DNA of 64,000 nt from Takakia lepidozioides. Taxonomy: Eukaryota; Plantae; Bryophyta. Every line of letters begins with the position of its first letter. Positions within the stretch are counted from its first letter, which is position 1. Made by a program: the position numbers and the translations under genes. The notes beneath the pieces are model-generated. The model was given only the letters and a program-made list of their open reading frames with translations. It was not told the DNA's origin and searched no databases. Of this stretch, positions 38,001 to 60,500 are shown piece by piece. The stretch lies in assembly GCA_030704615.1 (NCBI GenBank), contig CM060734.1, positions 37,076,001 through 37,140,000 on the forward strand. The letters are read 5' to 3'.

Positions 38001-38947
38001 CCTGTACCTCTGTTTACCAACTTTGAAAGTCTCGAGGCTGAGCCAAAAGCCCAGGCCCTTCTGAGGCCTAGTTTTTGGGCAAATCACACACAGCAGATTG
38101 ATGCTTGTGTGAAGGGATTTCTAGAGGATATCTGGAAAACCCGAATTAATTCTATTTAATAAGGTAAGTCTTACTACCAATGTCAGCCCCTGACAGAGGT
38201 AGGTTCTGTCCCTTTGGTTTCCGCTCAAACTGGGCGCGGGGTCAATGGCCACAAGGCTACGGCAAACAACGTCTTATGAGTACATTCTATCTGTAAGTTG
38301 TGGGAGCCACCCTGAACAGCCCCAAAGCCCCAGAAGAGAGGAAGATAAAGGTGCAAATAGGTAATTAGGCTGCAAGAGTCTACCATCACGGAGAACTAGG
38401 AATGTCTCCCGATAGAAATGGAGTTTTGTTGTAAGAGTGGCTGGCTTCCTTGGTCGCCTGACATGAAGTTCCATAAGTTCTCTTCCGATGAGTCTGTTGG
38501 ATGTGATTTCCACCCCTTCTGTACTTTGTGGCAGTAAGGAAGCAACAGAGAGTCCATTGCGCTCACAATTAGCTGCACACCCGAGAATACCAGGAGGACT
38601 TGAAGCCTGCTGTATTGAGCCTAATAGATGTTTTAAGGGCACTTGCTGTGAGCCCTTAGAGAGAAGAGATTATTCATTATGTCCAATGCAAAATCTACAG
38701 TAAGAATAAGCAAGAAATTCAACAATGTCGCCAGAAGGGAGAGAGTTGGATGTGTGGTATTCCTAAGGTGAGACACGAGACACGGTTGAAGACTGAGGTA
38801 GATAGTGATTGACCAGCTGAAGATAATTTGCCAGCTGCTTCTTGCATATCTTGCTAACTGTGATTTATCTCTCTGGCTGGAAGCAGATCTCCTTGGATGG
38901 TGGATGCCGATCCTAAAGAAGTCGGATTTGGCATCTACCTGCAATAG
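18382..38947 (+). CDS. Saccharopine dehydrogenase-like NAD(P)-binding oxidoreductase (At1g50450-like), 13 exons
   Basis: Exons 18382-18587, 19175-19272, 19710-19792, 20308-20434, 20806-20887, 21228-21325, 21979-22063, 29107-29230, 29894-29995, 33503-33564, 33952-34033, 34490-34569, 38887-38947; all GT-AG and phase-compatible. Motifs VIVLGGTGRVGG, VAGRNREKG, DLVIHAAGPFQ, AYIDVCDD, GIYPGVSN, YYTAGSGGAGPTIL, NLPEV, SARFGT, GVWFPEE, PWMVDADPKEVGFGIY. The start codon is the least certain part. Confidence 0.93.
22185..22460 (+). mobile_element. 3' fragment of LINE family 2 with (CATTT)n tail
   Basis: ...LVAYLHEALRL..., then gtcccgtaagctctatgagctttccgcggatgttataaag and catttcatttcatttcattt. Matches the minus-strand copy ending at ~35052. 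Confidence 0.7.
22678..22763 (+). mobile_element. Short SINE-like or 3'-end fragment related to LINE family 1
   Basis: cctggtg...gggagggttagt...gggtcaatggctgtaaggctatggcaagcc...gagtacat(tc)n; homologous to 33162-33278. Confidence 0.65.
23047..23083. repeat. (TC)n microsatellite at the 5' junction of the LINE
   Basis: About 18 uninterrupted TC units immediately before the LINE. Confidence 0.97.
23084..27604 (+). mobile_element. Near full-length non-LTR retrotransposon (LINE family 1, RTEX-like): N-terminal region, APE endonuclease, RT, CCHC finger, (CT)n tail; in intron 7
   Basis: APE: LATFNFSG, AGQETW, LLGDFNARVG, DYII, GTSDHFLVW. RT: KKGDREEPGNYRGITLL, QAGFR, FLDVKKAYDTV, GVAQGCTLSPLLF, MFADD. 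C-terminal CPLCGQSEDSIHFLIHC. 3' end ...cttatgagtacaa(tc)n. Clade assignment is inferred from motifs. Confidence 0.95.
23520..23935 (+). repeat. Three ~141-bp (47-codon) tandem repeats inside the LINE coding region
   Basis: The middle unit reads EGFGTLNGLPILKVYTRRAKSIHGVIVPKQSDGQSAPMCAEPVRRVT; the other two units match apart from 1-bp indels. Confidence 0.85.
27605..28243 (+). mobile_element. 5'-truncated LINE family 1 copy stacked on the previous tail
   Basis: Starts ggataaatctgacttagagg right after (ct)n, includes the CCHC finger and ends gagtacaa(tc)n. Confidence 0.92.
28244..28999 (+). mobile_element. More diverged 5'-truncated LINE family 1 copy with an internal deletion
   Basis: EFGIPSLSSRRDEFKVRWW...CPLCGQPEDNVHFLIHC; ends gagtacattctctctct. 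Confidence 0.9.
30220..30367 (+). mobile_element. Two very short LINE family 1 3'-end fragments
   Basis: ccgctcaaactgggcgcggggtcaatggccacaaggctacggcaaacaacg...gagtacaatctc, and cacaaggctacgacaaacg...gagtacattctctc. Confidence 0.8.
30529..33112 (+). mobile_element. 5'-truncated LINE family 1 copy (RT + CCHC) in intron 9
   Basis: Begins after (ct)n at attgggaggaaacta; nearly identical to ~25008-27600; ends gagtacaatctct. Confidence 0.95.
33113..33358 (+). mobile_element. Three stacked short 3'-end or SINE-like fragments of family 1 relatives
   Basis: Successive tails ending gagtacaatctctct (33148), gagtgcattctctct (33278) and gaatgcattctctctctct (33358). Confidence 0.75.
34817..35050 (-). mobile_element. 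Antisense degraded LINE family 1 3' relic
   Basis: The minus strand encodes DDISWKQDRPDKQAKSWRKRVQEIFKDL and carries the 3' motif gggcgccaggtctttggccacaaggctacgg...gagtgcattc. Confidence 0.8.
35052..38650 (-). mobile_element. RTEX-like LINE family 2 3' fragment, split by a family 1 insertion
   Basis: Removing 35443-38300 restores ...TTKLHFYRETF...LFRV.SHNLQIETGRWENLQREHRLCPAC...IETEEQLFFSCPLYWEIR...; (CATTT)n tail at ~35054-35072. Confidence 0.85.
35443..38285 (+). mobile_element. 5'-truncated LINE family 1 copy in intron 12 with a 15-bp TSD
   Basis: From DHFLVW through RT (MFADD) to the CCHC finger and 3' end gagtacat. Flanked by TCTATCTGTAAGTTG at 35428-35442 and 38286-38300. Confidence 0.95.
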
Positions 38948-39194
38948 CACATTTTGAGCACTTTGAGATAGAACATTCAATGAGGACTGCATCAGCAAAA
39001 TCTCCTCACTGAGGCATCTAGTTGGATGACGGGACATACAGGAAATCGGCTCAGAAGAAGAACAAGGACACTCTGCTCATTTTTGTTGGGAGAGACCATT
39101 ATGAATGATTTTACAGAGGCATCGACTGGCAAATTTAGATGTACGAGGAGTTGCAAGCATCAGGGTCAGAGGGTGGGGTCAGTTGAATTAGGAA

Positions 39195-39855
39195 TTATTT
39201 CTTGGAAGCAAGACCATCCTGTTAAACAGGCTAAGAGGATATTTTCAAGTATCTGAATATTTGTCCAGAAGAGTAGTCCCTAGTGGATGAAGCTGACCTT
39301 GAGGAGGTTATGTCCAAAGCCATGTCTAATGCCCAAAGACTGTCAGAAGAAAATAAAGTTCAGCATAAAACTTCCCTGAACTTGTTTTCAGTCTGAGCCA
39401 TGAAAGATGATCTGAAGTTCAATGCAAGACGGGGAGCCTTTGAACAAAAAAAGGATGCAGAGAGGAAAAGGGAACTGTATTTACTGATGTGCAGGCAACC
39501 TGAAGACAATGTCCATTTTCTGATACATGTCCGGGGTATTCTCACCAGCGAGTGACCCTCTTTAGGAACATCAAGAACATGGTTCCTGCACCTGCTCACG
39601 ACGAACTTTGAACATCTAGAGACTGAGCCCTAAGCCCTTGTCCTGTTGGGGGCTGACTTTTGGGCAGCTCACACACAGCAGATTGATGCTTGTGTGAAGG
39701 GCTTCTAGAGGATATCTGAAAAGCTATCAAGGTTAGTCACACTACTGGAGTGAGCCCCTCACAAAGGTAGTGCCTATTCCCTATGTTTCCATCCAAACTG
39801 GGCGCAGGGTCTATGGCCACAAGGTTACTGCAAACAAAGTCTTACGAGTACGTTC
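39195..39855 (+). mobile_element. Old degraded LINE family 1 3' fragment downstream of the gene
   Basis: ISWKQDHPVKQAK..., cacacagcagattgatgcttgtgtgaaggg, and aaactgggcgcagggtctatggccacaagg...gagtacgttct. Confidence 0.85.
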
Positions 39856-41696
39856 TGATGTTAATCTTCATTGCTTGGAACCAGAAGCCTGCAGGGCCCA
39901 TGTGAAGATTTAAGGTCCAGGTCTGCTGAGTGCCTCGCCAGACTAGCAGTTGCCGGATTACACAATGCTCCAACCATTGTTTGATGGCCAGGCTATGAGA
40001 TCCCCGGATTGAGGTCACTGTGGGTGATGACTGATGACATGGTTGCAGCTTTCCTCATCCGGGGGACTCCCACAAATGAGCAGTGTGCTGTCGCCCTCAC
40101 GCAATTCTTACTTTGAATCCGTAACCCGTTAAACCGCGTGCCCAGACACTTATCTGTTCAAACTTCAAACCCTGGGTGGCAGGCAGGTGGCTCCTTGTAA
40201 TCTGAGCCAAGTCGGACATATCCAAGCACGACATCAATGCGTGGACCTGGCTGGCGCACTATATCCGTCATCTTTGACAAGAGGGTCAATCAATGATTCC
40301 ACTGAATCTGTTCCTCCTATAATTGCCAAAAAAGGTATCGGAACTGCGGAATTGCAGATTTCTCGGGTTTGCAACTTTGCAGCCTGCACGCCATGATTGC
40401 ATGCAAACATCCGCTTTGTTCAGACAATTCCTTTTCAGACTCAAACATTCATGCCACGCTCTGAAACAAAAAAGATGACTGCCGAGTCGGTGTCTTTCCT
40501 ACCTACTTTGTCCCTTGCGACACTTCGTCAAGTGCAACTTTACGTCGACCAAGAAACGTCCACGACTGAACAACCAAAACTTTTGGTTCCAGTGCGACCT
40601 TCACGCCATCGCTCGATCTCCAGTGGGTATATGACAAATCGGTGGCTCGCAGACATGGGGTTGGTGAATTGTGGTGGAGCCCTCCGCCATCCACGCACCC
40701 ACCCACTCATGTTTACTAATGTCTCCTCATCTCTACATTACACTGCTGCTGCTCTTTAGCTCACTCCGGTGTCGGTCTGTACAGTAACAGCAACTTAGAC
40801 ATTAAACATAATCTCTTCTCTTCTGTTTCAACTTTCAAATTATTTAGAACTACACAAGGGAAACCTGGAGGCTGGGAGCCAGTGAGTCCTGACTCCTCAG
40901 TGATGAGGGGGAAAAGAATAGCACGTTTTGTTTGTGAGGCCCATGACGAACCCAGCTGAGGGAATGATGATGCACACAGCCACCGCCCCTGTCTCAGTGT
41001 TAACATTTTGTTTTGAAACAAGCATCTGTATTCTATGAAGAAACCCATCATAGATGGTCCCATGCCAGTGGTCCTGGCATCTCAGTGGGGTTTATTTTTT
41101 CCCCTTTTACTAAATTTTTTTGAGGGCTACTATCCCCTCTTAACCCCTAAACTTTTTGCCATGATCCAGTTTTCATGGATGAGAGTGGAAACTAGTGGGA
41201 CTCAAGTTCCACTTTCAGGATGGAAGTGAAGCTTAAGTGAACCCTGAAGATAAATTGTACATATTAGAGAGGAGCAGATGTGAGAGATTACAGCGCCCTG
41301 AAATAATAAAAGCTCTTCTCCCTAGAGTTTTGCAAAGTGCCAGGGGTCAGGAAGTTCAGTACTGAGCACCATTGACCTGCCCACGTGGCAAGTCAAATGG
41401 GCAATCTTGTAAATAACATCTAGGGCTGAGAATTCATCATAATGCCGAAATTTTTTGGACAAGGCCAATTTTTGGACAATCATGGGTAGAGTACCCAGTA
41501 CCCATTGTTTATGTATGTACGATGTACAACGCCAATTCACAGACAAGAATCTACATGCTGGTTTTGTTTGGGGTTTTGAATTGTTAGAAGATGGTGTTGT
41601 CCTTTGTTGTCAAGATCCAGGGAACCCCTCATTTCACTTCCTCTTGTTGGGGGCGTAAGATATTTGAGATGAGGACCCAGCTGATCACCTTCTGAC

Positions 41697-44389: not shown

Positions 44390-47300
44390 GTGATACCCAT
44401 CGTTCTCGTGGGGAGGGACAAAATACTTTTTTATCAAGGCCAAACAAAGAAGATTAGCCAACATGATCCCTTCTCTGGTCATAAATGGTGTCTCTTTCTC
44501 TGACCCCAAATCCATCTAAAAAATAGCTGCAAAATTTTAGCTTTTTGGAAAACGCAAGCAGTCCGCCCAAATTGATAAGGCTATGAGGCTGATCCTCATC
44601 CATTGCATTCTAAAATCCCTGTCTGGCATCGATCCTTTTTTTTATGGAAGAGTTAGCAAAGGCAATGGAGGCCCTCGCTCCTTCCAAGACTCTAGGTGGC
44701 AGGCTTGGATGGTACTACAATAGAGTTCTTTAAAACCCTCTGGCTCACAATTGCAGAAGATTTCCTTCTCATGGTTAATGATATCCTCTCTAAGAAATCA
44801 TTCCTTCTCAGTTATCTGAAGGCCTCGAGATCACTCTTATCTTCAAGAAAGGAAATAGAGATAATATAGCTAACTACCGCCCAATCACCTTGCTGAATTC
44901 TACATATGAACGACATGCACATCATTCTCTTAGCCTACGAGTCTCTCCATAAAGCCTTCCAGGATAATCAGCCGCTAACTTATCTAATGCTAGATTTCAA
45001 AAAAGCTTTCGACTCTCTTGTTACATGCCTTGGAGATTACTGGAATACAGGGCTCCTTCTGCTCATGGGTCAAAATTAGAGGTCAATGGCACCATCTCTC
45101 AATCCTTCCCGCTTTTTTCGGTCTGTGCGGCAGGGATGCCCATTGGCTCCCTTCCTGTTTCTCATAGCAGCTGACAGCCTGAGTCACGTACTGGAACACA
45201 AACATGACATAGTGGGCATCCATCTTCCACCTCCTCACCTCCAACAGCAAGGTATGGTTAAAGTCTCTATGTATGTTGACGACAGAGTTCTGCTATTGGA
45301 CAATGCACAGAAATGCAATATTGACAAGACACTTCATGCTCTTTAGACTTTTTGTTATGCATATGGTGATCTTAAGGTGAATTGGCAGAAATCAGTGGGG
45401 ATACTTTCTTTATTATAGTACTAGAATTCCTACACAAGACATTGTCAACCATGGGGTGAGGAGCTGGGTCTTAAATGGCTATCCCACAGAGAGGCTCATA
45501 CTCTGCTAGGACATCAATTCGGGGGTAGATGCAGGGTAAGGTGGACCAAAATTAGCGTCACCGGCATAGTTTTCAGTGACTGTCGTGCATGATATCATGA
45601 CTGGCTTTGAATAGAATCAATAATGTTGAGAAACATTTTCCATTTGGATTCCTAACTTCAATATCTACCTATACCAACCGTCAAATTGTCAATCAAATAA
45701 AATGTCCCAGAGGTATGGACTTTTGAACACGACAACTGTGGGCTGTTACCACTGCAAATGAAAATACATGGACTCAAAATAAGCCATTGTGCCTTTGGTG
45801 TATTGCTTTGAACTTTTGAGGTAATGGGGTCAATTTAGAGAACACTCTAGATTTCAATTTAAAATGACAATATCAGCTGTCATTTACTATCTATGACTAA
45901 TATGCGTGTTATATATAGGTGGATTTGTTTTAATTTAGTACATCTTGTGTTTTGGGCTTTTGAGGTGTCATGTTTTACTGCAAATGATACAAAAATATTA
46001 TCTACAATGGCTTGGTTGTATACAAAAGTAGAATATATCAAATTTTGTTTCAAATTAAAGACCAAAATTTGTAGTAAAAATTATCTTTGATGTTTGGGGC
46101 AAGACCCTTTACTAAAAATGTTAAATATACGATTGTCTATCATTATTTGAAATTATTTGGGGAAATATCGCCAATTTGAATTTGGTCATGGACTTCCATG
46201 GAAGGCAGCTTTGCCGTTTTTGGTCCACCTTATCCTGCAACTACCCTCTGAGCTCAATATTTCTGATGAACAACGCTTCTAGAGGGTTTTGAAAAACTAA
46301 AGCAAAAATTGGCATTGTGGAGCTCGTCGATGCTATCTATAGCCGGAGAGCCCTGGTAGGTTTTATTGGCCTCAACGTGGTTTTTTTCGCTGCGGTTTGG
46401 CCCCTCAATCTACCTCCGTTAAAAAGATTATAGCCTTTATGAGAAATTTCTTATGGGGAGCAACCCCCGCCTCTCCCAACCGGCGGGCACTGGTTTTATG
46501 GGCTCAACTATTCTAGCCTAATAATAAAGGTGGGTTAGGCCTCATCAATCCAGGCTCGCAAATCTCAGCCTTACTTGTTAATGGATTGCAAGAGCCCTCA
46601 ATAACACGAGTAGTCCCTGGAGTAGATTGGTACAACCTCATTTGGTTGGTTCCATCCCAAGATCATACCTGCTTTGGGCTAACTCCCTTTAGATGGATTG
46701 TGCAAGGAAATGGAAAAGGTACAGACATGGGATCTGAGCCATGGAAGTCAATTTGGTTCATGGAATGCTCTTAGGGGCTCCATAACACAAAGAATGCAAT
46801 TAATTTTGTGGAGTGCATAAGACAACCTGACATCTTTTCAAACTACAACATGGACTCCAAAATTCTTCTTTAACTGAAACCCAAATGGCCGAATTGGGTG
46901 ACAGCGAGTTCACTCATCTGGGGAGTATATGGGAATACAGAGGCTTCCTGCCATTGCCAACAATAGCGGCCTTGATGGGAACTACGAGATCTTTGGCTTG
47001 GTAGACCATTTGCTCTCAAGGGCCTCCCTACATATATACTACCAATCCTTCAAACGGAGCCAAGCAGTGGGAGCTCCCAATATGGATGGCATGTACTCAA
47101 ACGACGTCTGTTTCTGTCATCCTAGTCGTGTCCTTGGACTTGGACTCAATTTCTGGAATTGGGTTCACTGTAGACAATGTTGGGCATCTTCAACCCAATG
47201 AAGATGTTAGATACTCACTTCTTCTTTATTACATATTTGAGTGATTGATAGAAAGGGAGTCTCAAACCCAGTGCCCCCACAAGGCCAGGAGCTAGAATGA

Positions 47301-47411
47301 CCCTGCATTCTCGAATCTACTGGTTTTTCCGCCACCCCTTGGCAAGGCTTCGATTTGATCAGGCGGGATGGTCTTGGATAGATGGAGCACGCTCGCCCAG
47401 TTCTTTGCTTA
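44390..47411 (+). mobile_element. Degraded L1-clade LINE ORF2, interrupted by a MITE and by the Gypsy element
   Basis: GLDG..IEFFKTLW, IFKKGNRDNIANYRPITLLN, LDFKKAFDS, SVRQGCPLAPFLF, MYVDD, VNWQKS, MRNFLWG, KGGLGLINP. Confidence 0.85.
45534..46235. mobile_element. Non-autonomous TIR element (702 bp) with 4-bp TSD TGCA
   Basis: TIRs GGGTAAGGTGGACCAAAA ... TTTTGGTCCACCTTATCC flanked by TGCA on both sides. AT-rich interior; interrupts the L1. Confidence 0.85.
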
Positions 47412-47599
47412 TGTCGTGCACATACATATCGCTACACAACTACATCATTGTCCAAAACCACACAACACATGTGTACGCCACACACTAGTATATCACTAGT
47501 CCACCACTAGTCCAACCACTAGTCCAACCACTAGGCTACAACTAGTCAGTCACTAGGCTGCCACTATGATGCCCACTATGGCAGTCACTAGTCCACACA
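47412..47599 (-). repeat. Partial LTR (first 188 bp) joined head-to-tail to the full LTR
   Basis: Matches 47930-48117 with about 9 substitutions counted by eye, mostly transitions. Confidence 0.9.
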
Positions 47600-47600
47600 A

Positions 47601-48117
47601 TGATAAAGAAGAAGAATACAAGCACAAGCTCATGAAAGCTCACAAAGCTGAAGCATAAACTCATGCATATATAACCTCATCACTCAAATACAAGTCAAGC
47701 CAAGTGCACCCCACGCCATAAGGAATCCACACTACGGCGCCATAGCTAGGCGCGGTGAGGCTCAACTTGAGAAAGATGAGCCTCCCGCGCTTGCCGTGAA
47801 GATAACCACTCCAGGGCCTAAATCTGCCTTGACCCCTGGATTGACACTTGGGCCAATCCCAAATGTCAATATGTAAAAGCTAGCTATTTTTTAGCTAGTT
47901 TCACACTAGTGGTAAAATAACTTGACAGCTGTCGTGCGCATACATATCGCTACACAACTACATCGCTGTCCAAAACCACACAACACATGTGCACGCCATA
48001 CACTAGTATATCACTAGTCCACCACTAGTCCAGCCACTAGTCCAACCACTAGGCTACAACTAGTCAGTCACTAGGCTACCACTATGCTGCCCACTATGGC
48101 AGTTACTAGTCCACACA
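47601..48117 (-). repeat. Complete LTR, 517 bp, TG...CA
   Basis: The minus strand starts TGTGTGGAC two bases after the polypurine tract (CTAGGGGGGCG, 48130-48120) and ends CTTTATCA. Its last 75 bp recur at 57216-57290. Confidence 0.85.
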
Positions 48118-48377
48118 ATCGCCCCCCTAGCTGGTGCTTAGGTCCCTCTAAGTCCAGGTAGCCACAAGATGTGATAGTGACCATAGCCTCACTAAGTCCT
48201 CCACCACTATCCCTACTACACTCAAACTCGATAGATCAAGAGGCCGGGTGCAAGAGTTGCCCCATCGTTAGTTGCCATCTTGCAACCTGTGAACTTGAGC
48301 TTGGGATCTCATGTATTGACTCCTATGAGCTTGGCCTCCCATGTCTTGTTAGCTGCCTCCAGTCATATCCACTGCCA

Positions 48378-49660
48378 CTATCCCAAGCAGTGTGGATACA
48401 ACCAATCTCCGTCAGGAACCTTCTCAAGAGGTGGTGTCAAGCATCCCATATGCCAACCCCTTGAGCATCGATCACACACCAGCATGGTGACTGCCCCTTT
48501 GGCAGACCCACAGAGCATGCACCTCAAACCTGCAGGTACCACTGCCAAGTTTGGGTCAACTCTGCCATCAACATTGGGAAGGTGACATGGCGCACAATTA
48601 CGCACATGGTCCTTCCAAGTCATGCCATCCCGACCCTCCAAGATCAGTACCCCTGAGGACAACACCTCTCGAACCCTCAGAATAACACGCCCTGCAGTAA
48701 CATCCAGAGTCGTAGGAGCAGTCTGCTGCAAATAAACATAGTTACCACGGCTAAACCTCCGAACCCAAGGACGATATCCTCCACGTATAGTGGCATACCT
48801 CAACGTATCACGGTGCTGTGCAATGGCAAGGTTCTCAAAAGCCATGGGCATGACTTTCTTGAACAACTCTGCACGCTGATCACATGCACGTACCCACACG
48901 TCCGGATCGTCAAGGTTAAGGACTTGAGCAGTGTCCCTACGAATGGCTGCAGGCAAATTCGGCTCTCGGCCAAAGAGAAGGAAATATGGTGAGAAGGAGG
49001 CAAGTGATGCTTGTTTGCTGAACCTGTAGCCCATGACTAACCAAGGAACCTGAAGATCCCAATCTCCTAGGTGTCCCTTCTGCAAGCCATACTTGCGCAA
49101 ACCCCTCTTCACCGTCTGAACAACTCTCTCTGCCAAGCCATCGGCCTCAGGATGATCCCGAGAAGTGGTGCGGTGGTCTATCAAGGCTTTATCACACAAA
49201 GCCTGAAACTCCCCCAAGAACTCTCTCCCTTGGTCAGTGAGTACCTCAGCTAGACCACCAAATCGGCTAAGCACACGATCCAAGAATGCATTGCAGCCCC
49301 CTCACTAGCTTTGTCAGGCAATGGAACCAACTCAATCCACTTGGAGAAGTTCTCCACCATCACCAACACATATCTCTGGTGGCGCATAGTCAGTGGCAAC
49401 GGTCCTGCGAAGTCAAGACTCCACCTGTAGCCCAATCCCATGATTGGTAAAAGATGCAACTGTGGTGTAGGGGTGTTGAATGAAGCACGCACCCTGTCAC
49501 ACACCATGCACCTAGCCACGAGCTGTTGCACCTCTGTATGCATACCACGCCACCAATACTGCCCCTGCAGTAAACTGTGAGTGCGTCGCACTCCAAAATG
49601 CCCCAACTCCTCATGGGCATGCCGCACTAACCGTGCACGCTGTGTGGGGTGAGGCACAAT
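48378..49660 (-). CDS. Gypsy integrase (HHCC + DDE core) with C-terminal PHD finger; one frameshift near 49290
   Basis: HAHEELGHFG...YWW...CMVC; WSLDFAGPLP; LTDQGREF; HPEADGLAER; C-terminus CMLCGSAKGAVTMLVCDRCSRGWHMGCLTPPLEKVPDGDWLYPHC. Confidence 0.92.
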
Positions 49661-49979
49661 CCTCACTCGACCATCCTCCCACACTTGAAGTAGGTGTATC
49701 CCCTCCCACTTGAACCTCTTGGCTCGTTGCAGGATCCGATCCATCTCCCTGGCAGTCACAGTGGCTGCCGTGTCTCCCATGCGGAGGTAGTCCAACACAG
49801 CCGAATCCTCATGTATATCTCTGGCACCACCTGGCTCATCACTAGCCTCAGGGTCCTCAGACACTCCGTCTACAGTCATCCCTGTTGTAGGTCCAACTTG
49901 ACCTCCCGATGCCAAGATACACAAAAATGCAGATGCGTGCCATCCCGACACCATCTCCTCATCCGTCTCACCATGCCAC

Positions 49980-51348
49980 CGAGCTCCAGTGTCATCCTGT
50001 TGGCTCGTGCATGGATTGCGACTCAATCCATCCGCATCCCAATTGACCAAACCCGGCCGATGCACAACCTGAAAGTCATACTCCTGGAGTATGAGTACCC
50101 ACCGTGCAAGCTTCCCCGTAAGCTTGTCTGACTCCATCAACCACTTGAGTGGCTGGTGATCCGTGACAAAGATGAAAAGATTGCCGTATAGATAGCACCT
50201 GAAGTGTGCCACGGCCCACACTGCAGCTAAGCACTCTCCCTCATATGAGCTGTACTTAGCCTCTGCAGCGTTGTTCGAGCGGCTAGCATAAGCCATCACG
50301 AACTCTCTTCCCTCATCATCCACTTGTGTGAGCACCGCTCCAAGCCCCAACATGCTCCAATCCGTATGCAGCTGAAAGGGACGCCCCCTGATAGGTCGTC
50401 TCAGGATAGGCGCGAGGTCAACCTCGCCTTGAGCTCTTGAAAAGCTCGTTCCTACTCATCTTCCCACTGCCACTCCTGGTCCACCTTGGTCAGCTTGGTT
50501 GGAGCCTTTGCAATGGTACTAAATCCCTTGACAAACCGTCTATAATAGTTTGCCAACCCCATGAAAGCTCGAACTCGGCTCACATCCGTGGGGCGTGGAA
50601 TTTGTGCAATGGCCTCTACCTTAGTCTGCTGTACCCCCAATCCTCCAGGATATATCATGTGACCCAGATACTCAATCTGGTTGTGAAAAAACTTGCACTT
50701 CCCCGGATGCAATTTCAATCCGTGTGCTCTCAAGCGCTCCAATACCACCTGAAGGTGTCTCTCATGCTCCTCCACCGTAACACTAAAGATGATGATGTCA
50801 TCTATGTAGCACCGAGCAAAGTCCACGCCTGCTAGAATCCTATCCATGACTCTCTGAAACTCTGCAGGAGCATTCTTAAGCCCAAATGGTAAGAACCGCC
50901 ACTGATATAGGCAATCCTTGCCGTGCTCATTGATCCCCCAGAATGTCGTCTTCTGCTTGTCCGCCTCCTTGATTGACAACTGGTGATATCCGGATTGTAA
51001 ATCCAAAGTGCTAAAGACCTTAGCATGCCCGATGGCATCAAAGATCTCCTCAGGTGTTGGCATGGCATACTTATCGGACTTGGTCTGACGATTTACAGGC
51101 CGGTAATCACCGCACATACGTCTCTCCGTCCAATTGCCATAGACATCCTTCTTGGCTGGCATCACTGTGGCTGAAGCATACTCTCCACCAGAGAGCTCCA
51201 CCAAACCTGCCTCCCAGAGATTTTGAGTCCTCATTTGAATCAAAGACCTCTCCATGTCACTGTATCTATAGGGTCTCCGAAAGATTGGAGTGTCAGTGGT
51301 TAACTCAATACGGATCTCTTGACCCTTCAGTGCTCCCAAGTCCTTCAA
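49980..51348 (-). CDS. Gypsy reverse transcriptase and RNase H (disrupted near 50420-50455)
   Basis: RMCGDYRPVN, FSTLDLQSGYHQ, LPFGLKNAPAEFQR, YIDD, GKCKF..YLGH, RAFMGLANYYRRFV. RNase H: TDWSMLGLGAVL, YASR, ECLAAVWA, TDHQPL. Confidence 0.95.
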
Positions 51349-51809
51349 ACTAAAGGCAAAGCAATTCCTGTAAGCCCTCAGGAACCGCCGTATATGTCGT
51401 CTCTCTCCTCCGGTGACAATGGGTCCAATGTCAGGCTCCCAATTGTCCTCCGTAACTGCAACCTTAAGTCCAATGGGGTTAGAGGTAGAGGACGCGTCCA
51501 GTGGTTGCTATGTTGCAACCTCTTGAGCAGTGTTCCCTACCTGCTCAGTCAGTGACAAGGCCTCATCCTGCCCCATCATCTCATCCTCAAGGACTTCCTC
51601 CACCCGAGAAAAATCCCCAACCTCATCTATCACCGCCACCTTGGCTGCCAACTCCCTCTGAACCTCAAGCACCTCCCATGTGTGCCATGGATGTCTACAC
51701 CCCGTGGTCCTCACATGCTCGCCCCCACTCACTGCCTGTACCGTCTCGGTAGGCAGAGAGACCATTGAGGGAAGTGTATTCCGCACTCTGCATTGCTCAG
51801 CCATAGCCA

Positions 51810-52756
51810 AGCTGATAATCCAGGTCAAGCAATTGAGATCCATTGCTTGCCCCAACACCTGACGACGTGATGCCTCAGAAAGAGATGACACCGCCGTGGT
51901 ACCAGTGGTAAAACCCATTGCCCGCTCACGCTCGTCAGCATTAGGCTCCACTAACTGCTGCAACTGAGCATCCCACATGAGGCCAAGTCCACTATCCCGG
52001 AAAGCATGCGATCCTGGGAAGTTGAGCAGTGTAGGTAAATGCTACTCGTGGTTGACCCACCTTGTTGACCACTGCCAAAGGCGAATGGTCATCGTGTCTC
52101 ACACGCTGAGACTGCCTCCCTGTGTCCAGAATGCTATCCACTGTGAGATGTGTTGGCCGCTGCACCCCATCAAATGCACGCTTGAGCAGTGCGGGTGGCA
52201 TCAAGTTAGTCCACCATAGCCGTGGACGATGAGCCCGTGACCCCACTGTAGCTGCATCTAGCAACACTGCTGACCCAAGCCACGACCAGACTTGATGCAC
52301 ACTGGCCATCACCCTGGCCCGAGAATCGCCCATCAGTGGCACATTCTCCAAGATGTATGCTGGAGATACAGCTTGATGAAGCTGCAAGTGGCGCAAAATC
52401 CGCACCATCTCCCAAAACAGACCCGACCTCGAGTCTCGCAATCCATTGCCATGCCCGGCTGCTGAATGCCCTTGGCAGGGCCAACCTGCTACTTCCAGAT
52501 CAATGGAGCCAACCCGCTCCAAATCTTGCGCCCCCAGCAGCGAAATGTCTGCTGGCAAGGCCTGTTGATATCCACGAACTGCAGACACCGGCAACAACTC
52601 AGGGTACCGCTGCACCAACTGAGCAATATGGCGAAGTGAAACGCGTCGTGCAGTCTCATCCCTCTCCACATACAGGTAATGCCAAACTCGTACACATGTC
52701 TGTAATACAACAGCCAATCCGGTGCTGATCCCGCCAAACAAGTCCAGAAGACAAAT
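51810..52756 (-). CDS. DNMT3-like DNA (cytosine-5)-methyltransferase domain within pol; one frameshift near 52038
   Basis: Motif I LLDLFGGI, II YVERD, IV AGWPCQG (catalytic PC), SGLFWE, VI ILENV, VIII AHRPRLWWTN, IX ERERAMGF, X RRQVLGQAM, in canonical (non-permuted) order. Confidence 0.92.
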
Positions 52757-53159
52757 GCCTTCATCCAGATACTGCCACACAATAGGTGTGGTGTCCAATG
52801 GAGACAACTGAGGTGGTCCTGGTGCAATCCCCGCACTCTCCTCCTCTCCTGACGGTACAAAAGCCTCCACCCAGGCTTGTTGCACCCGTTGATCAGCATC
52901 CCGCTGCAAATCCTTGCTCGTGCCCCACAATGGAGTCTGAGCAACCATGGTAGGCAACTCCACCATACCATACATGTCATCCTGCTCTCCTGGAGGTGGC
53001 ACATCCTCTGAATGAGCGTTGCCCTCAAGCAACTCTCCAGGCCAACTCACTGCCGCTGTGAATGCTGCTAGTGTTGGCATCTTGCCTCGCTGGGCAACCG
53101 CAACTCCTCCTATGAACGTCACAGGGAGCTGCACACGTCGGCCCTCCCCTGACTGCCAT

Positions 53160-54881
53160 CTAGGCCTATAGGAAGCTGACTCCTCCCTAAAATCCAGGGT
53201 GAAGCCCATGGGGTACAACACTGCCCCACCAACAAGGACATCGTACGAGACCGTGTCTGTCACAATGGCCTTGCATCACTGAGCCATCTGTGGGGTGATC
53301 CGGCCGTAGTCTGATAGCCAACTCACGCCGTGTCATGCCCCGAGCCTGCTCTGATCCTCCCAGAGACGTTTGTATCTGGAAAGGACAAGGCTCCATATCC
53401 GCCTCCGTGTGGCCATGTTGAGCTTGCCCTTGGCCTGCACCTCGTGCCTGGCCACCTCGTCCTCTCTGGGCTGCTCCACCTTGCCCCCGGCCACCATTGT
53501 TCCCTTGGAACTGGCCTAGGCGCAACTCAGGATGCAAACCATAGCACTGGGCTTCTCCATGCCCGTACTTGCCACAATGCCCACACTGCAACTGTGCAGG
53601 CTGTGCATGTGCCGACCCTTTGCCTCCCTCTGGGCAATCCTTCTTGACATGGGGTCCTCCATATGTCCAGCACACCACATCCGTCTGTTGTTGGCCAGCA
53701 AATGAAGGGAGAGACCCCTGCATCTGAGGTCCTCTCTGCCCTTCCCTGAGCTTCACCTGAGCCCCCTTGTTGCCTTGAGCACGTTGAGGTAGTGGTTGGC
53801 TAGGAGCACCACTACCCCGTGGTGTCTCCTTAGCAACCATGACCACTCGTTCCTCCACCATGTTGAGCTCTATCCGCTCTGCCAGCAAAAAAAACATTTG
53901 CTAAGGTGGGTTGGGCCGCTTGTAGGAGAGTTGCATCCCACACCCTTATCCTCAGTTCCTTGCCCAATATCCCATACCAGAATTGGACTGCCTGAGCTTC
54001 CGTAACCCCTTGGGTTACATTTATCAAGCGCCTCATGCGAGTGAAAGCCTCCCTCGAGCTCTCGGTCAGCTTCCGTTGGAACTCTTGCAAGCTCCACAAC
54101 TTCTCTGTCCTCACCCCTTGGTAGTTCCCTCTCAACTCTTCAAGGAACTCCACAACAGGGTTGAAGGCAGGCACGGGTACTGGTGCTGGTGCGGTAGTGG
54201 CTTGGGTGGACGTCGTAGCTACGGTACCACCAGTCCTACTAGTCCCACTGCTGCTTGCTGAAGCTGCCGGTGCAGCGGCAGGTATAGCCACTGCCCTCGT
54301 GGCTCTAGTGCCCCTAGTGATGGAGACATAGTCGGGTGACCAGTACATCCTCCACTCCTCGATCTCAACCTCATGCCCCCGCCTGAATTCATGGTAACCA
54401 TCCATAGGCGGCCCCTCAAGGTGCTGAAACAGCCCCATGAAAGACGTAAATAGTTGTGGATTGCGCATTTGCTGAAATCACACCAACTATCACACTCTTG
54501 GATAAAATCATCCAACTCAATGGTGCCCACCGCCCCAAAGTACCTTCGTGGCCCTTTGGTAGCTCCATACATCTCCTCCATTGTGTACCACAACAATGGC
54601 AAGGAAACAACTTGCACCGCTGGTATGAGTCCTCCTGATTCACAATCCGAATCAGAACCTTCCGTAGAAGACACAAGAGGTGAAGGTGGCCTAAACCGCA
54701 CACCTTGTCTCGTGTACCCACTAGTATTGCTAGTGCTCAAACCGGCACTGTCCCCAGCAACTAGTGGCACCTCCGTGTTGACACTCAACCGGTCATGAAC
54801 ATGTCCGTAATCCCCTCTCCACAAGGTAACCAGGTAGAGAACATATTGCAGCTTATGATTTGGAATACTAAGTTCCAACAT
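53160..54881 (-). CDS. Gag (frameshifted) and C-terminal half of the aspartic protease
   Basis: ELDDFIQECDSWCD; LQEFQRKLTES; knuckles CWTYGGPHVKKDC (degenerate) and CGHCGKYGHGEAQC; protease tail FQIQTSLGG...SYDVLVGGAVL. No D(S/T)G found. Confidence 0.75.
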
Positions 54882-55482
54882 AGCCTACACTTGTACCTGT
54901 ATCCACCGCAAGCACTCCTATGGTTGGCTGGTCATCACCTCCAACCTCACCACAGGAGAAACAATGATGGTCTGGCTGGTCATCACCCCAGCCTCACCAT
55001 CGACAGCATGCTCTAGGACTGGCCGGTGATAAAATCCGGACCAACCACCTATAAAAACAAGCGCCCACACAAAACTAGCATGGCGCACAGTCAAGCATGC
55101 AGGTATGGAGGGGATCTAAACACAAGAAATCAGAACGACAACTCCCCCACACCAAAAACAACTCCACGGTGTTGCTCCTGCAAGGACACCCCAGCCCAAA
55201 CCCGGATTGACTCTTGCCTCCACCTACGGAAAGGTCTTGGCCTAATGAGAGGGTGGAAACTACGAGGAAGAGAAGCTAAAGCAATGCCTAACCCCAACAT
55301 GCCTCATCCCAAACACTCTTCTTCTCCTCTCTTCCCTCACTTGCATGACCATGGGATATATCATGAAGATACTCCTCAAACCGCCCTCCACGAGCTTCAA
55401 AATTCGGCCTTCAAGACTACATGCCAGTCCTTAGGCAGTCCACCAGTGCCTCCACGAGTCAGCACATGCCGTCCACAGGTCA

Positions 55483-55955
55483 ACACAGGCCACCACAGAC
55501 CAGCACAGGCCCACACAGATCACTGATCACAGCCGTCACAGCCCCACACAGGCCACAACCCATCACAACCCCAAAGGCCACATGTCACAGCCTGTCACAG
55601 CCCCCACAGCCATAGGTCACAGCCTGTCATAGCCCATCACAACCCCAAAGGCCACAGGGACAGCCTGTCACAGCCCTACAAAGGTCACAGGGTCACAGCC
55701 CCAAAGGCCACAGCCTGTCACAGCCCGTCACAGCCCCACAGGCCACAGGGCATAGCCTGTCCCAGCCCGCCACAGCCCCACAGGCCACATGGCACAGCCT
55801 GTCACAGCCCTACACAGGTCACAGGGTCACAGCCCCAAAGGCCACAGCCCCTCACAGCCCGTCACAGCCCCACAGGCCACTGGACACAGCTCGTCACAGC
55901 CCTACACAGGTCACGGGGCATAGCCTGTCACAGCCCATCACAGCCCCACAGGCCA
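55483..55955. repeat. Short-unit tandem array (GTCACAGCCC/GGCCACA) in the retrotransposon 5' leader
   Basis: Dozens of cacagccc / gtcacagc / ggccaca units with larger repeated blocks. Confidence 0.9.
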
Positions 55956-57199
55956 CTCATGACAGTTTAGCCATTTCTCCAAGGGGTTTAGCCACGCCAA
56001 GCTAGGGTTTGTGTCTCTTGGATTCTAGGCTTCTTTGCACCAAGCTATGGCGGCTGTGAAGAAATCAGCAAGGTATTCTTGCTCTTTCAGCTCCCACACA
56101 CCACCAATAGTAGCCCTTAAGCCATGAGGAAGATGATTGCCACAAACCAAGCTTTCTTTCTCACTTAGACTCCCCAAACACGCCACTAAACTCAATGGCA
56201 AACAACCAAGCCTTGCTGGTTTCCAGCCCTTGTGAGCACTCATTCAAGCGTTTCCCTTGGCCATAACATCTGTCTTAGAGCCTATTCTAGCCCCCTACAC
56301 CTGCCACTTCAAGAGCCATGCTCTATCTAGGCTTGAGGTTGAAACCCCAACTCAGAACACGCTCTACAAGTGTCGGACTGTCACATAAGAGCAGATCAGC
56401 CCCTTACCTTCTCTTCTAGTTCTCTAAAGCTTGAAAGCATTCTCCACACATGCCCTACAGGGAAACCAGCCCCTTCCTTCCTTTCTTGCACTCCCAAACC
56501 TCAAAGTACAAGCCTTCAACAGGCTGAAAGCATGCTCCACACATGCATTGCTCTCACATAAGGGAAGTCAGCCCTTCCCTCTTCCTTGCTTGCCCTCCAA
56601 GCTTGAAGATGGAAGCTTCAATGAGCTGAATACATGCTCCACACATGCAACCTCTTCACACAAGAGGTATCAGCCCCCTATCTTGGCTCCTTAGCTCCTT
56701 GATGCTCTCTAAGACAAGACTAAGCACTCCACAACCCTTGCCAAGCTCCTGAAACCCTAAGGCTTACATTTCCAGCCACAAGACACTCCTCTTGTGGTGC
56801 AAGAGCTCTTCTTCCAAGCTGTGAAACCCTAGGTGCACATTCCATGGCCTTGCCGCACCTCTTAGCTCTTGTTCTAGCCCTACTCTTGCCATGACAAGAG
56901 CCCTCTCAATGCTGAAGCTCGAGATTGAAACCCAATCTCAACATACTCCACAAAGTGCACTGATTTGCCCCAAGCCAAATCAGCACTTTCGCTTGGTCTT
57001 GCAATCCTGCAGCATAGTGCTTTCATCTCTGAAGCTGAAGATCGAATGCCAAGGTCTACCACCTCGTAACCCACATCGCCTCCGCTTCTAACAACCAAGA
57101 GTTCCACGGTGCTCCTTACATAACAACCTGGTTTCTCTCATTCTCAAGCAAAAACCACAAGTGCTACAACTAACTCGTATCTGACACTCACAGATACGA

Positions 57200-57215
57200 G
57201 CTCATCTTTCTCGAG
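57200..57215 (-). other. Putative primer-binding site complementary to the element's own LTR
   Basis: CTCGAGAAAGATGAGC immediately follows the LTR-terminal CA on the minus strand. It is 15/16 complementary to LTR positions 47781-47766 and does not begin with the TGG expected of a tRNA PBS. Confidence 0.7.
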
Positions 57216-57290
57216 TGATAAAGAAGAAGAATACAAGCACAAGCTCATGCGATCTCACAAAGCTGAAGCATAAACTCATGCATATATAAC
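57216..57290 (-). repeat. Partial LTR (last 75 bp, U5 end)
   Basis: tgataaagaagaagaatacaagcacaagctcatg...catatataac matches 47601-47675 with 3 mismatches. Confidence 0.9.
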
Positions 57291-57540
57291 GTTGGTCCGA
57301 AGCTGTGGGAAGAGCTGCACACAGGGACACCCACGCTTTTATCTCCTTAGTCATCACATCCCAATAGATATTATAGAGCGTGGATCTGGTGTTGGGGTTT
57401 ACCCTCAAAAAGCGATGAGCATCGAGCTTTCCGGATGGCCCACGAGAAGGCCCACGTGGCAAAACACTCGACCAGGTGAAGCACCTTGGGTGCTTCTTAC
57501 ACCTAAACCGGATGTGGAGCGTTACAAACAGAAAGCTCAC
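57291..57540 (+). mobile_element. Probable continuation of the interrupted L1 (C-terminal region)
   Basis: W..KLW...PRFYLLSHHIP pattern resembles the L1 C-terminal region; weak and frameshifted. Confidence 0.45.
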
Positions 57541-60500
57541 TGATCACCTGAGTTGAAACAACTTCTTCAATAGACCTCAAATAGATGTGGAGAGGATCTA
57601 ATTTACATTAGAAAACATCTATAGATTTTTGGTCAGGTCCCAAAAACTCAATCCAGGGTAGGTAGATTTCTTTTTTCTGCAGCTACCCCCCCAAGTTTGG
57701 GTGGGTGGGCTCCATAACAATTAAAATGTTGGCACTTCTACTGTTCAACACGTTGGCCTGTGCATAACCTGAGTGACCCTGGGTTCAATCCTTCAACCCT
57801 CCAGTGGTCCCTACAAGGCCTATCTGGAGGGCTAAGCACACTTGTAACGTTTGTAACTGGTGGGAAGTTTGAAAGTGGGGGTAGCCGAAGGTTTGCGAGC
57901 AATAAATGCGCAGCGATGGTGGGTGGAGTGTCAAGCCACAAAGATTTGCAATACATGCCCCAACACGGAGATCGCTGACATAATTGTGGGCTGTAAATGT
58001 TGCGTGACTGTGGATCGTGAAGACGGTGTGATCGAGTGCTTGCCGGGGAGAGAGAAGTTTGGACAGGATTGGCGCAGCTTTGTGACGCTACATTTATGAG
58101 CACAGTCCTCGGATTTTTTCTTCTGTAAGCAGCACCAGTCTGAATTGTTCTTTCTCACTTTTGCTTGTGTTATCCCTGTTAGACCCCACCAAACAGCTCC
58201 TCCACCTGCTTTTAAAATCACCTCCCAGTCTCTGTGAGCATAGAGTCATACGGTATATCTTTCAGTTGTTCTGGATAGTGTAGAAGCAAGTGGTATACGT
58301 AAACTTCTGGCCGACTCCTGAATAACCCGTTTTCGCAAGCATGTAAAGTTTCACACAGTCAACCGACGTTGCCCATCTCCCAGCAGCTCTGTTGTATTGC
58401 ACAAAGCAGATTTCATCAGGACGGATACACACACATTGCAGATCCGTAACGTCGGTCTGTTACTGGGAGAATCTGGGCACGGCTGGAAAAGGTATTGTCC
58501 AAGAGCTCCATTGCTTTGTGCAGAGAGTAGTGGTGGTAATGTACGTTTGTTCATGTAGTCCAAATTGTTCGGGTTGAATTTATCAATGTTAACGTAGGTT
58601 GAGCATTGTCAGAGAGAAGTTTACGTGGCAGTAGACTCGGATGACGAGTGTTGGACGATGCAACCATCGTCGCAAAGCTCTATTTGTCTGTCGCCGGCAA
58701 GTGCCAATGCCCAGATTGAAGCTGCGTTCGTGTTTACAGTGTCATGTGAGACTTAAGTTCTTGACTCCATTTGATGGATGCAATTGAGATTGAAAATAGA
58801 AGCTAGTTGATGGATGCTAGTCTTTGGTTGCATGTAAAAGGGCAGCGCGTGGAATCTTCCTTGAGGTCAAACGCAGCGATGGAGTCTGGAAGGTTTGCAT
58901 GGCTAGAGTGCGGTGACACTTTTGAGGTGCTACTCTTAAAACCTTGGATCATGGGTAGCTCTGGAAGTCGAGTATGCAAAACAGACTTTCAAGATTTAAA
59001 TACAGAATCTGTTGCCCCGTTGGAATCTGCAATGTAACTCGGGTTGGAGACAGTCCATGTCTGTGTGTGTACGTGGGAGAGATCTGAGAAGGAGATACAG
59101 AGAGTTGGTGTGCCACGGCTTGTTGGTTATCAAAACGCGCTGGGAAGCTGTAATCTGAGGAGAAATTCCTTGTCCTGGTTTGAACTTAGATATGGATTGC
59201 AGGCATTCTCCAGAGAAAAGCAAAGAGAGGGACTTGGAAACATATTACTCAATGCCGTTTCATATGTTTTTATGTTCCTCTGTCTTAAGTCAGAACATCT
59301 TGCTGTGCTATCACAAATGAGTTGAATCTGGAAGACAGATGTAGGTGATTTTATACTAGGAGTATGGTTTCGAAGTCTATACTCACCGGAAGCAGGTGGA
59401 AGCTTCTAGCGTTCCTTAGCAATCACAATCAAATTGCAGAAGAGCCTGAGAACTAGGGCCAAATTGAGCTAATGTTCTGTGGTTGTGAATTCATAATGCC
59501 CAGACCTCTGAATTTCTCAAGCATCCGAGTCCCAAGTATGAAGGTGGACCAAGTTATATCTGTTCTTTGTGATTGTGGGGGATTCCAGGATAAAGTGGCA
59601 TTCCTCATGGCCGCGTCCATGACATTGGGCTACTGGGGCTATCTCTCCATTGTGGCCCTTAAGGAATTCTTACAGGTATTTCTCTCCCAGCTAAGAAAAG
59701 AGCAGGTGGGCATTAGCTCATCGCTCGTTGTTTTATCCTGGGGTGGGGTATCTGGCAGCTTCAGAAGTCTTTGTTACTTTGTAGAGTTGGGGGGGAGCAT
59801 ACTAGGATGCTGTACCTCCGAGCAAGGTAGGATCACAGACCCTAAACCCTAAACTGTACGATTGTGCTGGAAGATGATTTTGGCAGACCAGGTCATATGA
59901 GTCAATAAGATTTTTTGAAGGAAAAAAGGACCCTCACAGATGCTCAGGTTTGTGGAAAAGTGTTGCCAAACTTGCATGAATATAATCTTGTCAATGTCCA
60001 ATTTACTTCTGAAGTTGGTCATTTATGAAGAACCAGATTTGGGTAGGTCAGCTTTACAGCTCCAAGCGTTGAGATTGAAAAATTGTTTCAAACAGCCTCT
60101 CTGGGAGGGGGTGGCTGCAGGTAGTGCCTGAAAGGAAGCTACAATGGCAGCCTGCAATGGTAAAGGCTGTGTCGCGGGCCATCACTAATCTTCCATGGCT
60201 TCTCACAATTTCAGCCACAGGAGCACCTATTCTTAATTGGATATTGGATCTTCAGTCGAGCTTTATGAACACATGGTTGCATCTCTTTCTATTGGCTGTG
60301 GCTGCTGAGTGCCTATTGACTTCTCTGAACTCTGTTACAATATTTGGCTGCGCCATTCTTGCCGCTTTTGGCTTCCAGGTACTGGACGCTAGAACTTGTG
60401 ATTCTTTCTGTGAGATACTTCCTGACATGCCCCTCATGTGACTTGATTTCAAGTTTAGTTAGACCCATCAAATTATGAAATTGCCTATCGAGCAGTCTCC

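Follow-up and report, generated by a model that had tools for sequence, protein, structure and literature searches.

A Ty3/Gypsy retrotransposon copy carrying a DNMT3-type cytosine methyltransferase domain in Takakia lepidozioides, and its relatives in green plants

The element and its methyltransferase domain

The window, that is, the whole 64,000-nt stretch of Takakia lepidozioides DNA that was analysed (GCA_030704615.1, contig CM060734.1, 37,076,001 to 37,140,000), contains a decayed copy of a Ty3/Gypsy retrotransposon on the minus strand at positions 47412-57290. Pfam scan, tblastn and motif positions located gag, protease (PR), reverse transcriptase (RT), RNase H (RH) and a DDE integrase (IN), together with a cytosine methyltransferase (DNMT) domain (Table 1). 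Comparison with open relatives revealed at least six frame changes from gag to integrase and the loss of about 0.8 kb, which took with it the protease active site kept in the relatives. Consequently, this copy is dead. Its 5' terminal repeat, A1, is shortened, and its paired repeats diverge by 4-5%. The initial annotation had counted one 1-bp frameshift within the methyltransferase domain, which we found near 52040, but the element as a whole is far more broken than was claimed. An Rfam scan of the window gave no match.

Table 1. Features of the Ty3/Gypsy copy, listed from its 5' to its 3' end (positions in the window)
Feature	Position	Strand	Basis
A1, 3' remnant (75 nt) of the 5' terminal repeat; 5' part absent from the window	57216..57290	-	96% identical to 47601-47675; full A about 337 nt in relatives
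Self-priming-type primer-binding site, directly after A1	57200..57215	-	Complementary 15/16 to 47781-47766 in A2; 0/5000 shuffles as good
Array of a repeat of about 42 nt in the long 5' leader	55490..55960	-	Repeat families D14, D15
gag with zinc-knuckle region, frameshifted	53511..54731	-	tblastn against open relative P0186, 42-58% identity, three frames; CGHCGKYGH 53585-53559
Aspartic protease, C-terminal part	53150..53396, inner end approximate	-	P0186 residues 408-714 unmatched, 714 onward matched
DNMT3-type C5 cytosine methyltransferase, motifs I-X, one frameshift near 52040	51810..52756	-	PF00145 47.2 bits; motif positions; PDB best matches DNMT3A/3B
In-frame stop with candidate readthrough context TAG CAA CCA	51502..51510, stop = 51510-51508	-	Stop then CAA in 25/25 distinct sequences; CARYYA motif (PMC5382211)
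Reverse transcriptase, YIDD 50808-50797	50452..51507	-	PF00078 E 7.7e-33
RNase H	50060..50455	-	PF17917 E 1.9e-34
Integrase, H2C2 zinc finger and DDE core, frameshifted	48800..49650, lower end approximate	-	PF17921 E 1.3e-15, PF00665; D, D, E motifs 49423, 49238, 49139
PHD finger, integrase C-terminus	48381..48521	-	PF00628 E 9.6e-09; PDB matches CHD4, KDM5B/5A PHD1, ATXR5, DPF3, PHF21A
Polypurine tract directly before B1	48120..48128	-	Sequence; same tract in relatives
Repeat B1, ends CA	47930..48119	-	95% identical to B2
Internal junction CA-GC-TG: element right end (B) joined to left end (A)	47924..47933	-	B1 into A in 6/18 relatives scored
Repeat A2, starts TGTCA; promoter region and self-primer site 47781-47766	47601..47927	-	Repeat comparison
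Repeat B2, element 3' end, ends GCACGACA	47412..47601	-	Repeat comparison; depth drop below 47367

In run X1, summed contig depth, which is not a copy number, reached 0.2-1.3 million over 47367-57275, whereas it was 74 on the 3' flank, the drop to flank level coming below 47367. The bins of the methyltransferase domain (0.8-1.2 million, again not a copy number) lay at the level of those of reverse transcriptase and integrase. We read this depth only as the presence of many sister copies that retain the domain. Contigs with a one-base difference at 52037 occurred in three runs, so the frameshift near 52040 is not common to all sister copies.

Other repeats were observed around the element. A different repeat (57291-58000, depth 3500-5300 in run X1) starts where A1 breaks off and may have been inserted into, or have replaced, the 5' end of the Gypsy copy. 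Decayed remains of a LINE-like reverse transcriptase, read by eye, adjoin its 3' end on the plus strand (44800-47400). Further away, also on the plus strand, a LINE with endonuclease and reverse transcriptase (PF00078 E 1.9e-34) is present at 25000-39900 as three tandem copies spaced by about 5.2-5.5 kb. These are mostly 84-100% alike in register, are accompanied by additional copies of the 3' part, and look like repeated head-to-tail insertion. A 20-nt unit array (repeat family D1) lies at 1693-2553.

All six C5-methyltransferase motifs claimed at first were found at their places on the minus strand in the canonical, unpermuted order I to X. LDLFGG (52747-52730), GWPCQ (52486-52472, with the PC of motif IV intact), ILENV (52354-52340) and AHRPRLWWTN (52234-52205) share a single frame, while ERERAMGF (51933-51910) and RRQVLGQAM (51867-51841) stand in a second one. 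The ORF at 53275-51992 covers the C-terminal part of the protease and motifs I-VIII. The domain is matched by PF00145 (E 2.8e-12, 47.2 bits, cut-off 22). It is colinear with the open ORFs of relatives and thus without introns, as had been stated.

The affinity with DNMT3 proposed in the initial annotation agrees with both sequence profile and fold, which give DNMT3A/3B as best matches in the PDB. The open relative P0007 matched DNMT3A with E 7e-11, DRM-type entries with 1e-3 and M.HhaI with 1e-2; for a profile of 29 sequences the values were 1e-23 for DNMT3A, 8e-16 for the tobacco-type DRM entries, 3e-11 for DRM2 and 5e-9 for M.HhaI. The predicted model of P0001, an open relative 68% identical to the domain in the window, reached pLDDT 92 and aligned with DNMT3A over 323 columns (Foldseek E 6.8e-20, TM 0.83 over the target). 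The model made from the frameshifted single ORF of the window itself (pLDDT 59) also matches DNMT3A/B. A DRM methyltransferase was rejected, as had been anticipated, by the motif order, which is I to X and not VI-X before I-V. On these comparisons, the domain is classed as DNMT3-like and not DRM.

Like the host DNMT3 of non-flowering streptophytes and the animal DNMT3A/3B, the element has an unpermuted catalytic domain. It differs from host DNMT3 by lacking DUF3444, PWWP, ADD and introns, and the domains of the element family are 21-25% identical to DNMT3A/3B. According to the available text of Yaari et al. (2019, PMC6453930), host DNMT3 of non-flowering plants is encoded by a multi-exon gene and has a C-terminal DUF3444. 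No Pfam match to DUF3444 was obtained in the ORFs of the window or in the open relatives, and a host plant DNMT3 was rejected on this ground and for the lack of a multi-exon structure.

Sister copies, selection and the conserved stop

A search with the domain yielded 258 proteins of comparable length plus 59 that were longer, and the named relatives included Marchantia polymorpha, M. paleacea, Calypogeia fissa and Sphagnum; profile searches also matched Closterium, Mesostigma viride, Klebsormidium nitens, Chlamydomonas eustigma and Cymbomonas. Relatives in Marchantia, Calypogeia and Sphagnum share 67-71% identity with the domain in the window, while those in Closterium, Klebsormidium, Mesostigma and chlorophytes stand further off. 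In the tree alignment the domain is 68-74% identical to its nearest rows and 34% identical to the K. nitens protein. The domain is thus carried by land-plant Gypsy elements, in line with the first description, and the annotations of Marchantia polymorpha include open Gag-PR-DNMT ORFs. Metagenome loci, taken as the best 80 of 146 confirmed matches, show that it recurs in sister copies: gag or protease lies upstream of it in 59 of 63 loci, reverse transcriptase downstream in 54 of the 60 with room, and the same domain order recurs across the 80 independent loci. Among viral contigs, 39 pattern matches yielded no confirmed relative.

Neutral evolution, the other question raised by the initial annotation, is not what the substitutions indicate. 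Between the domain in the window and 77 loci, pN was 0.22 and pS 0.75; 39 pairs were saturated, and in the 38 unsaturated ones dN/dS had a median of 0.10 and a maximum of 0.16, near the 0.04-0.07 of reverse transcriptase, RNase H and integrase. These ratios indicate that the domain is under purifying selection. Within a young locus family, dN/dS was 0.44 for the methyltransferase and 0.42 for reverse transcriptase; such values are expected of copies that decay once inserted and are hardly informative.

An intronless, DNMT3-like domain in a decayed copy would also agree with the capture of a host DNMT3 transcript as a one-off or neutral event, in this copy or in its family. We consider such a capture hardly credible: it is refuted by the sister loci, where the domain keeps its position in the proportion given above (among the best 80 of 146 matches), by a dN/dS of about 0.1 and by the lack of the DUF3444 of host plant DNMT3s, and the domain occurs besides in proteins of Marchantia, Calypogeia, Sphagnum, Closterium, Klebsormidium and Mesostigma. 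Some relatives are annotated in databases as host "DNA (cytosine-5)-methyltransferase" genes, which could point to a domesticated host gene, and an assembly chimera might likewise bring a methyltransferase next to a retrotransposon. Both are very improbable here. The frameshifted domain lies inside a retrotransposon with terminal repeats, contigs of independent runs cover its bins as deeply as those of reverse transcriptase and integrase, and the order is the same in the 80 independent loci (best 80 of 146 matches). This refutation applies to the copy in the window only and not to single domesticated copies elsewhere.

Two architectures were distinguished. In type I the order is Gag-PR-DNMT, then RT-RH-IN-PHD, and all named members are streptophytes; in type II it is RT-RH-DNMT-IN-PHD, and the named members are chlorophytes. 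The second comprises P0407 and P0408 (Chlamydomonas eustigma), P0412 and P0416 (Cymbomonas tetramitiformis) and more than 70 further proteins, many of them missed by the precomputed PF00145 annotation. No description of an RT-RH-DNMT-IN(-PHD) architecture was found in the available text of de Mendoza et al. (2018, PMC5890265) or of the related literature. The split appears both in the methyltransferase tree (SH 92, 122 rows) and in the reverse transcriptase tree (SH 98, 85 rows), which were built with FastTree and a quick IQ-TREE run lacking a mixture model, near-duplicate rows being dropped by hand. P0170, P0410 and P0413, typed as I on weak matches, were given no weight. All 49 Gypsy-borne domains grouped together (SH-aLRT 91) against three outgroup rows, in a tree that holds no host DNMT3; with outgroups, type II had a support of 99, while type I was not one group in one tree and had a support of 66 in another. 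The copy in the window clusters with Marchantia, Calypogeia and Sphagnum in a 10-row group whose support is 100.

The catalytic residues are conserved in both types. The Cys of motif IV is kept in 59 of 60 type I and 116 of 116 type II domains (175 of the 176 classified), as is the Glu of motif VI in 59/60 and 116/116, and both Arg of motif VIII are kept in at least 58/60 and at least 115/116. Conservation was similar in 54 unclassified domains. In 17 of the 60 type I and 73 of the 116 type II domains, the retained Cys of motif IV is preceded by Glu and not by Pro (EC for PC). Separately, the protein P0167 joins a Dam adenine methylase to a related DNMT3-type domain and has an RT-like stretch as well; it is possibly a DIRS-like retroelement with two methylases.

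The initial annotation placed the domain inside pol. It does share an ORF with the protease tail, and reverse transcriptase does follow directly, but the domain ends the Gag-PR ORF ahead of a conserved stop and the pol placement does not hold. Reverse transcriptase begins just past this stop and is in frame with the DNMT ORF beyond it in 28 of 38 scored pairs. From 32 rows matching the RT anchor, 25 distinct sequences remained after dropping 7 duplicates; each has its stop in this position (20 TAG, 5 TAA), and the next codon is CAA in every one. UAG-CARYYA is the type I readthrough signal of plant viruses (PMC5382211, available text). The full CARYYA is present in 2 of the 25 (the window and L001, both TAG CAA CCA), and the other 23 differ at the last base, the large locus family having CAA CCC or CAA CCT after the stop; the background frequency of TAG followed by CARYYA was 39 in 10701. 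Among 40 of the 56 differences listed, no common sister-copy variant fell in the nine bases at the stop. Damage was rejected as the origin of the stop at 51510 because it is conserved across the family.

Open type I ORFs stop soon after motif X, including that of K. nitens GAQ93235.1 (P0342), and 26 of 27 long ORFs with protease and methyltransferase but without reverse transcriptase end at most 173 aa past the domain. We infer that the conserved stop is likely a site of programmed readthrough. A stop between methyltransferase and reverse transcriptase means that the methyltransferase would be made at the level of Gag and not at that of reverse transcriptase and integrase. Judged from the predicted proteins, Gag-level supply is not needed throughout the lineage: the type I relatives P0404, P0363 and P0426 are without the stop, and in type II the domain lies between RNase H and integrase.

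Terminal repeats, priming and insertion

The repeats in the window follow the order A1(part)-coding-B1-GC-A2-B2. The same A-coding-B-A-B arrangement is complete in the loci L028, L053 and L079 and partial in L011, L013 and L060. The locus elements start with TGTCA and end with CA. Exact 4-bp target duplications flank 8 of 12 full-span loci, against 0 of 132 cross pairs; two of the remaining loci match in three of four bases, one matches in two of four and one is cut by the contig end. For the copy described here, the remainder of A1 and the 5' target duplication are absent from the window. The exact duplications indicate that the element ends are made by the DDE integrase. A tandem array of ordinary LTRs was rejected on the position of the duplications, which enclose the A...B or A...BAB unit as a whole. 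The canonical LTR structure was rejected too, as the 5' end is A only and the polypurine tract precedes B, 190 nt ahead of the internal TG. DIRS and Ngaro elements have a tyrosine recombinase in place of a DDE integrase and are not known to make a target duplication. This assignment was likewise rejected: no recombinase family was found in the 8 ORFs scanned, rve is present, and 8 of 12 relatives show the 4-bp duplications.

Directly after A1, the primer-binding site is complementary to A just downstream of its TATA region, and in relatives the RNA 5' end is predicted about 28 nt past the start of TATAAA. In L053 the self-priming complement is 14/14 bases (0 of 5000 shuffles), and the A repeats of L053 and of the window have no detectable similarity. 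In older loci the complement is weaker, at 8-14 of 14. With the tract before B1 and the self-priming site in A, reverse transcription should give ends at B and A; insertion would use the inner CA-GC-TG, so that the ends of the inserted element fall within the LTR set by reverse transcription.

Tract and B1 were both present in 18 distinct loci; in 6 of them B1 continues into A, and for the other 12 an end at B1 was scored, one of these (L055) having the junction deleted. We propose that A...BAB arises when end-joined or circular cDNA is opened at its left junction, and that one-repeat circles or recombination between B repeats give A...B. Random opening of a circle should yield A-B-GC-A...B as well, and an upstream B was seen at 0 of 23 distinct 5' ends, so the junction route is incomplete. 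Internally deleted derivatives that lack the polypurine tract ahead of B were also observed (L043 13144-13432, L051 5531-5819, L041, L029 and L080); in some of them B is joined to a partial A and the primer site.

The junction raises the question of whether the domain itself serves the processing of ends, binding or marking CA-GC-TG (two CHG sites), or the RNA or cDNA, and so guiding the integrase cut, any other methylation being incidental. CAGCTG forms the junction in the window, L011, L013 and L053, and split repeats and methyltransferase occur together in the copy in the window, in the locus family and in KnitGypsy-Dnmt3 (PMC5890265, available text). However, co-occurrence within one lineage reflects shared descent and not function, and we regard a role in end processing as rather improbable.

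Function of the domain and comparison with known elements

The reading we favour, with moderate confidence, is that of an old Ty3/Gypsy lineage whose Gag-PR ends in a DNMT3-type enzyme, likely present in the particle at the level of Gag and likely methylating the element's own cDNA before or during insertion. Occasional readthrough of the stop by ribosomes would supply RT-RH-IN-PHD, leaving the methyltransferase in excess over reverse transcriptase and integrase, and the protease would release it inside the particle. Self-primed reverse transcription would then give a cDNA bounded by B-GC-A, and the integrase, probably acting on end-joined or circular cDNA, would use the CA-GC-TG in the repeat to produce A...B-GC-A-B and A...B insertions with 4-bp duplications. 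Methylation could make the incoming DNA resemble host chromatin, or set its expression state, and the PHD finger could read histone H3 tails at the target. The enzyme is probably active, present in many copies per particle and placed to meet the cDNA. Depletion of CG or CHG as a sign of self-methylation was not seen in the copy, whose observed/expected ratios were 0.48 and 0.97 against 0.37-0.38 and 1.16 for the LINEs of the same window. Pre-methylation of cDNA had already been hypothesized by de Mendoza et al. (2018, PMC5890265), in whose available text retrotransposon Dnmt3 domains of dinoflagellates methylate CG de novo in yeast, while the Klebsormidium domain gave no methylation there, a result its authors took as inconclusive.

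An active enzyme might instead act on chromosomal DNA beside the PHD-bearing integrase, at the target site, on the new insertion or on other copies in trans, as self-limiting silencing or competition. Methyltransferase and PHD finger co-occur in both architectures, with 35 proteins of the form RT-RH-MT-IN-PHD, and the finger resembles readers of the H3 N-terminus (KDM5 PHD1, CHD4, PHF21A). A Trp two positions before the zinc-binding His forms part of the methyl-lysine cage of PHD fingers; this position is G or A, not Trp, in 87 of 88 sequences. The pairing of a PHD-like reader with a DNMT3 domain also recalls the ADD domain, which animal DNMT3 possesses. However, in type I the methyltransferase is parted from IN-PHD by the stop and, presumably, by protease sites, and a Gag-level protein made in the cytoplasm encounters cDNA first. 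We therefore hold chromosomal action to be unlikely, and retain methylation of the cDNA as the preferred reading. More tentatively, the whole may be drawn together as a hitherto unrecognised clade, represented in chlorophytes, Mesostigma, liverworts and mosses and very abundant in the host of the present copy, which would have kept an active DNMT3 and a PHD finger since before land plants and would combine readthrough, cDNA pre-methylation and DDE insertion at a circle-junction-like site in the LTR, a route otherwise associated with the recombinase-using DIRS elements.

A Gypsy-borne Dnmt3 was already known from one alga; what is new is the wider range in green plants, the placement at the level of Gag and an unusual end structure. 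Why a transposon should keep an enzyme of the class that silences it in the host has been a puzzle since 2018, and in the sole green case, an alga, the domain had shown no activity in yeast. The breadth across green plants argues for one old acquisition followed by long vertical retention and not for a capture specific to Klebsormidium. Marchantia polymorpha, for which methylation mutants exist alongside the open ORFs, offers endogenous material for a test. The end structure suggests a route of integration unlike the textbook model of linear cDNA, and LTR-finding tools may miss these elements, which have no paired LTRs. Elements of this kind can also inflate the DNMT gene counts of bryophyte genomes.

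The available literature gave no description of land-plant members, of the PHD finger, of readthrough or of split repeats combined with an integrase, and the supplements of PMC5890265, of PMC12344493 and of a 2026 preprint (bioRxiv 10.64898/2026.05.21.726589) may include land-plant copies. PMC12344493 and the preprint cite, in their available text, the elements of PMC5890265 as occurring in "streptophytes". The main text of the plant LTR survey PMC6317226 contains neither "PHD" nor "methyltransferase", and nothing on a DNMT-bearing Gypsy family was found in the available text of PMC5006619, PMC11982613 and PMC12885004.

The element in the window very likely belongs to the KnitGypsy-Dnmt3 lineage, and we take it most readily for a land-plant branch of that lineage and not for the product of an independent capture. 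The two share the Gypsy domain set, an intronless and unpermuted Dnmt3-type domain, the key residues, purifying selection (Ka/Ks under 0.2 in KnitGypsy-Dnmt3) and DIRS-like split repeats, given for KnitGypsy-Dnmt3 as A-coding-B-A-B in a figure legend (Fig. 4, PMC5890265). K. nitens GAQ93235.1, which we assume to be one of the published copies, is Gag-CCHC-PR-DNMT and colinear with P0186 (1124 columns, 25% identity, E 3e-61). As published, KnitGypsy-Dnmt3 has its methyltransferase in the Pol ORF with reverse transcriptase and RNase H, whereas here it belongs to the Gag-PR ORF before the conserved stop; the predicted proteins indicate that the single-frame DNMT-RT-RH feature varies within the lineage, P0342 ending after the methyltransferase and P0404, P0363 and P0426 having no stop. 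It was presented as an acquisition of the K. nitens lineage (PMC5890265), whereas we find relatives in liverworts, peat moss, Closterium and Mesostigma and a second architecture in chlorophytes. The available text of PMC5890265 makes no mention, for KnitGypsy-Dnmt3, of a PHD finger, readthrough, self-priming or target duplications.

SymbioDIRS-Dnmt3 shares the A-coding-B-A-B layout, and de novo CG activity in yeast was shown for SymbioDIRS; it has a tyrosine recombinase, unlike the element in the window with its DDE integrase and its relatives with 4-bp duplications (PMC5890265, available text). EpiLTRs and DAM-LTRs are likewise retrotransposons that bear methyltransferases, but the DNMTs of EpiLTRs form the sister group of DNMT4 and are accompanied by DAM and a chromodomain, and the preprint separates them from the streptophyte Gypsy-DNMT3 elements (bioRxiv 10.64898/2026.05.21.726589, available text). 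Gypsy elements of the Tf1/Tj1/Tcn1 type share the self-priming layout, with a site after the 5' repeat that is complementary to the RNA 5' end (PMC4600332, PMC6317226, available text), and a stop after gag exists in Tj1 as well (PMC4600332). They differ by their ordinary paired LTRs and chromodomain (PMC4600332, PMC6317226), whereas in the element described here the polypurine tract precedes B and not the TG end, and the integrase ends in a PHD finger.
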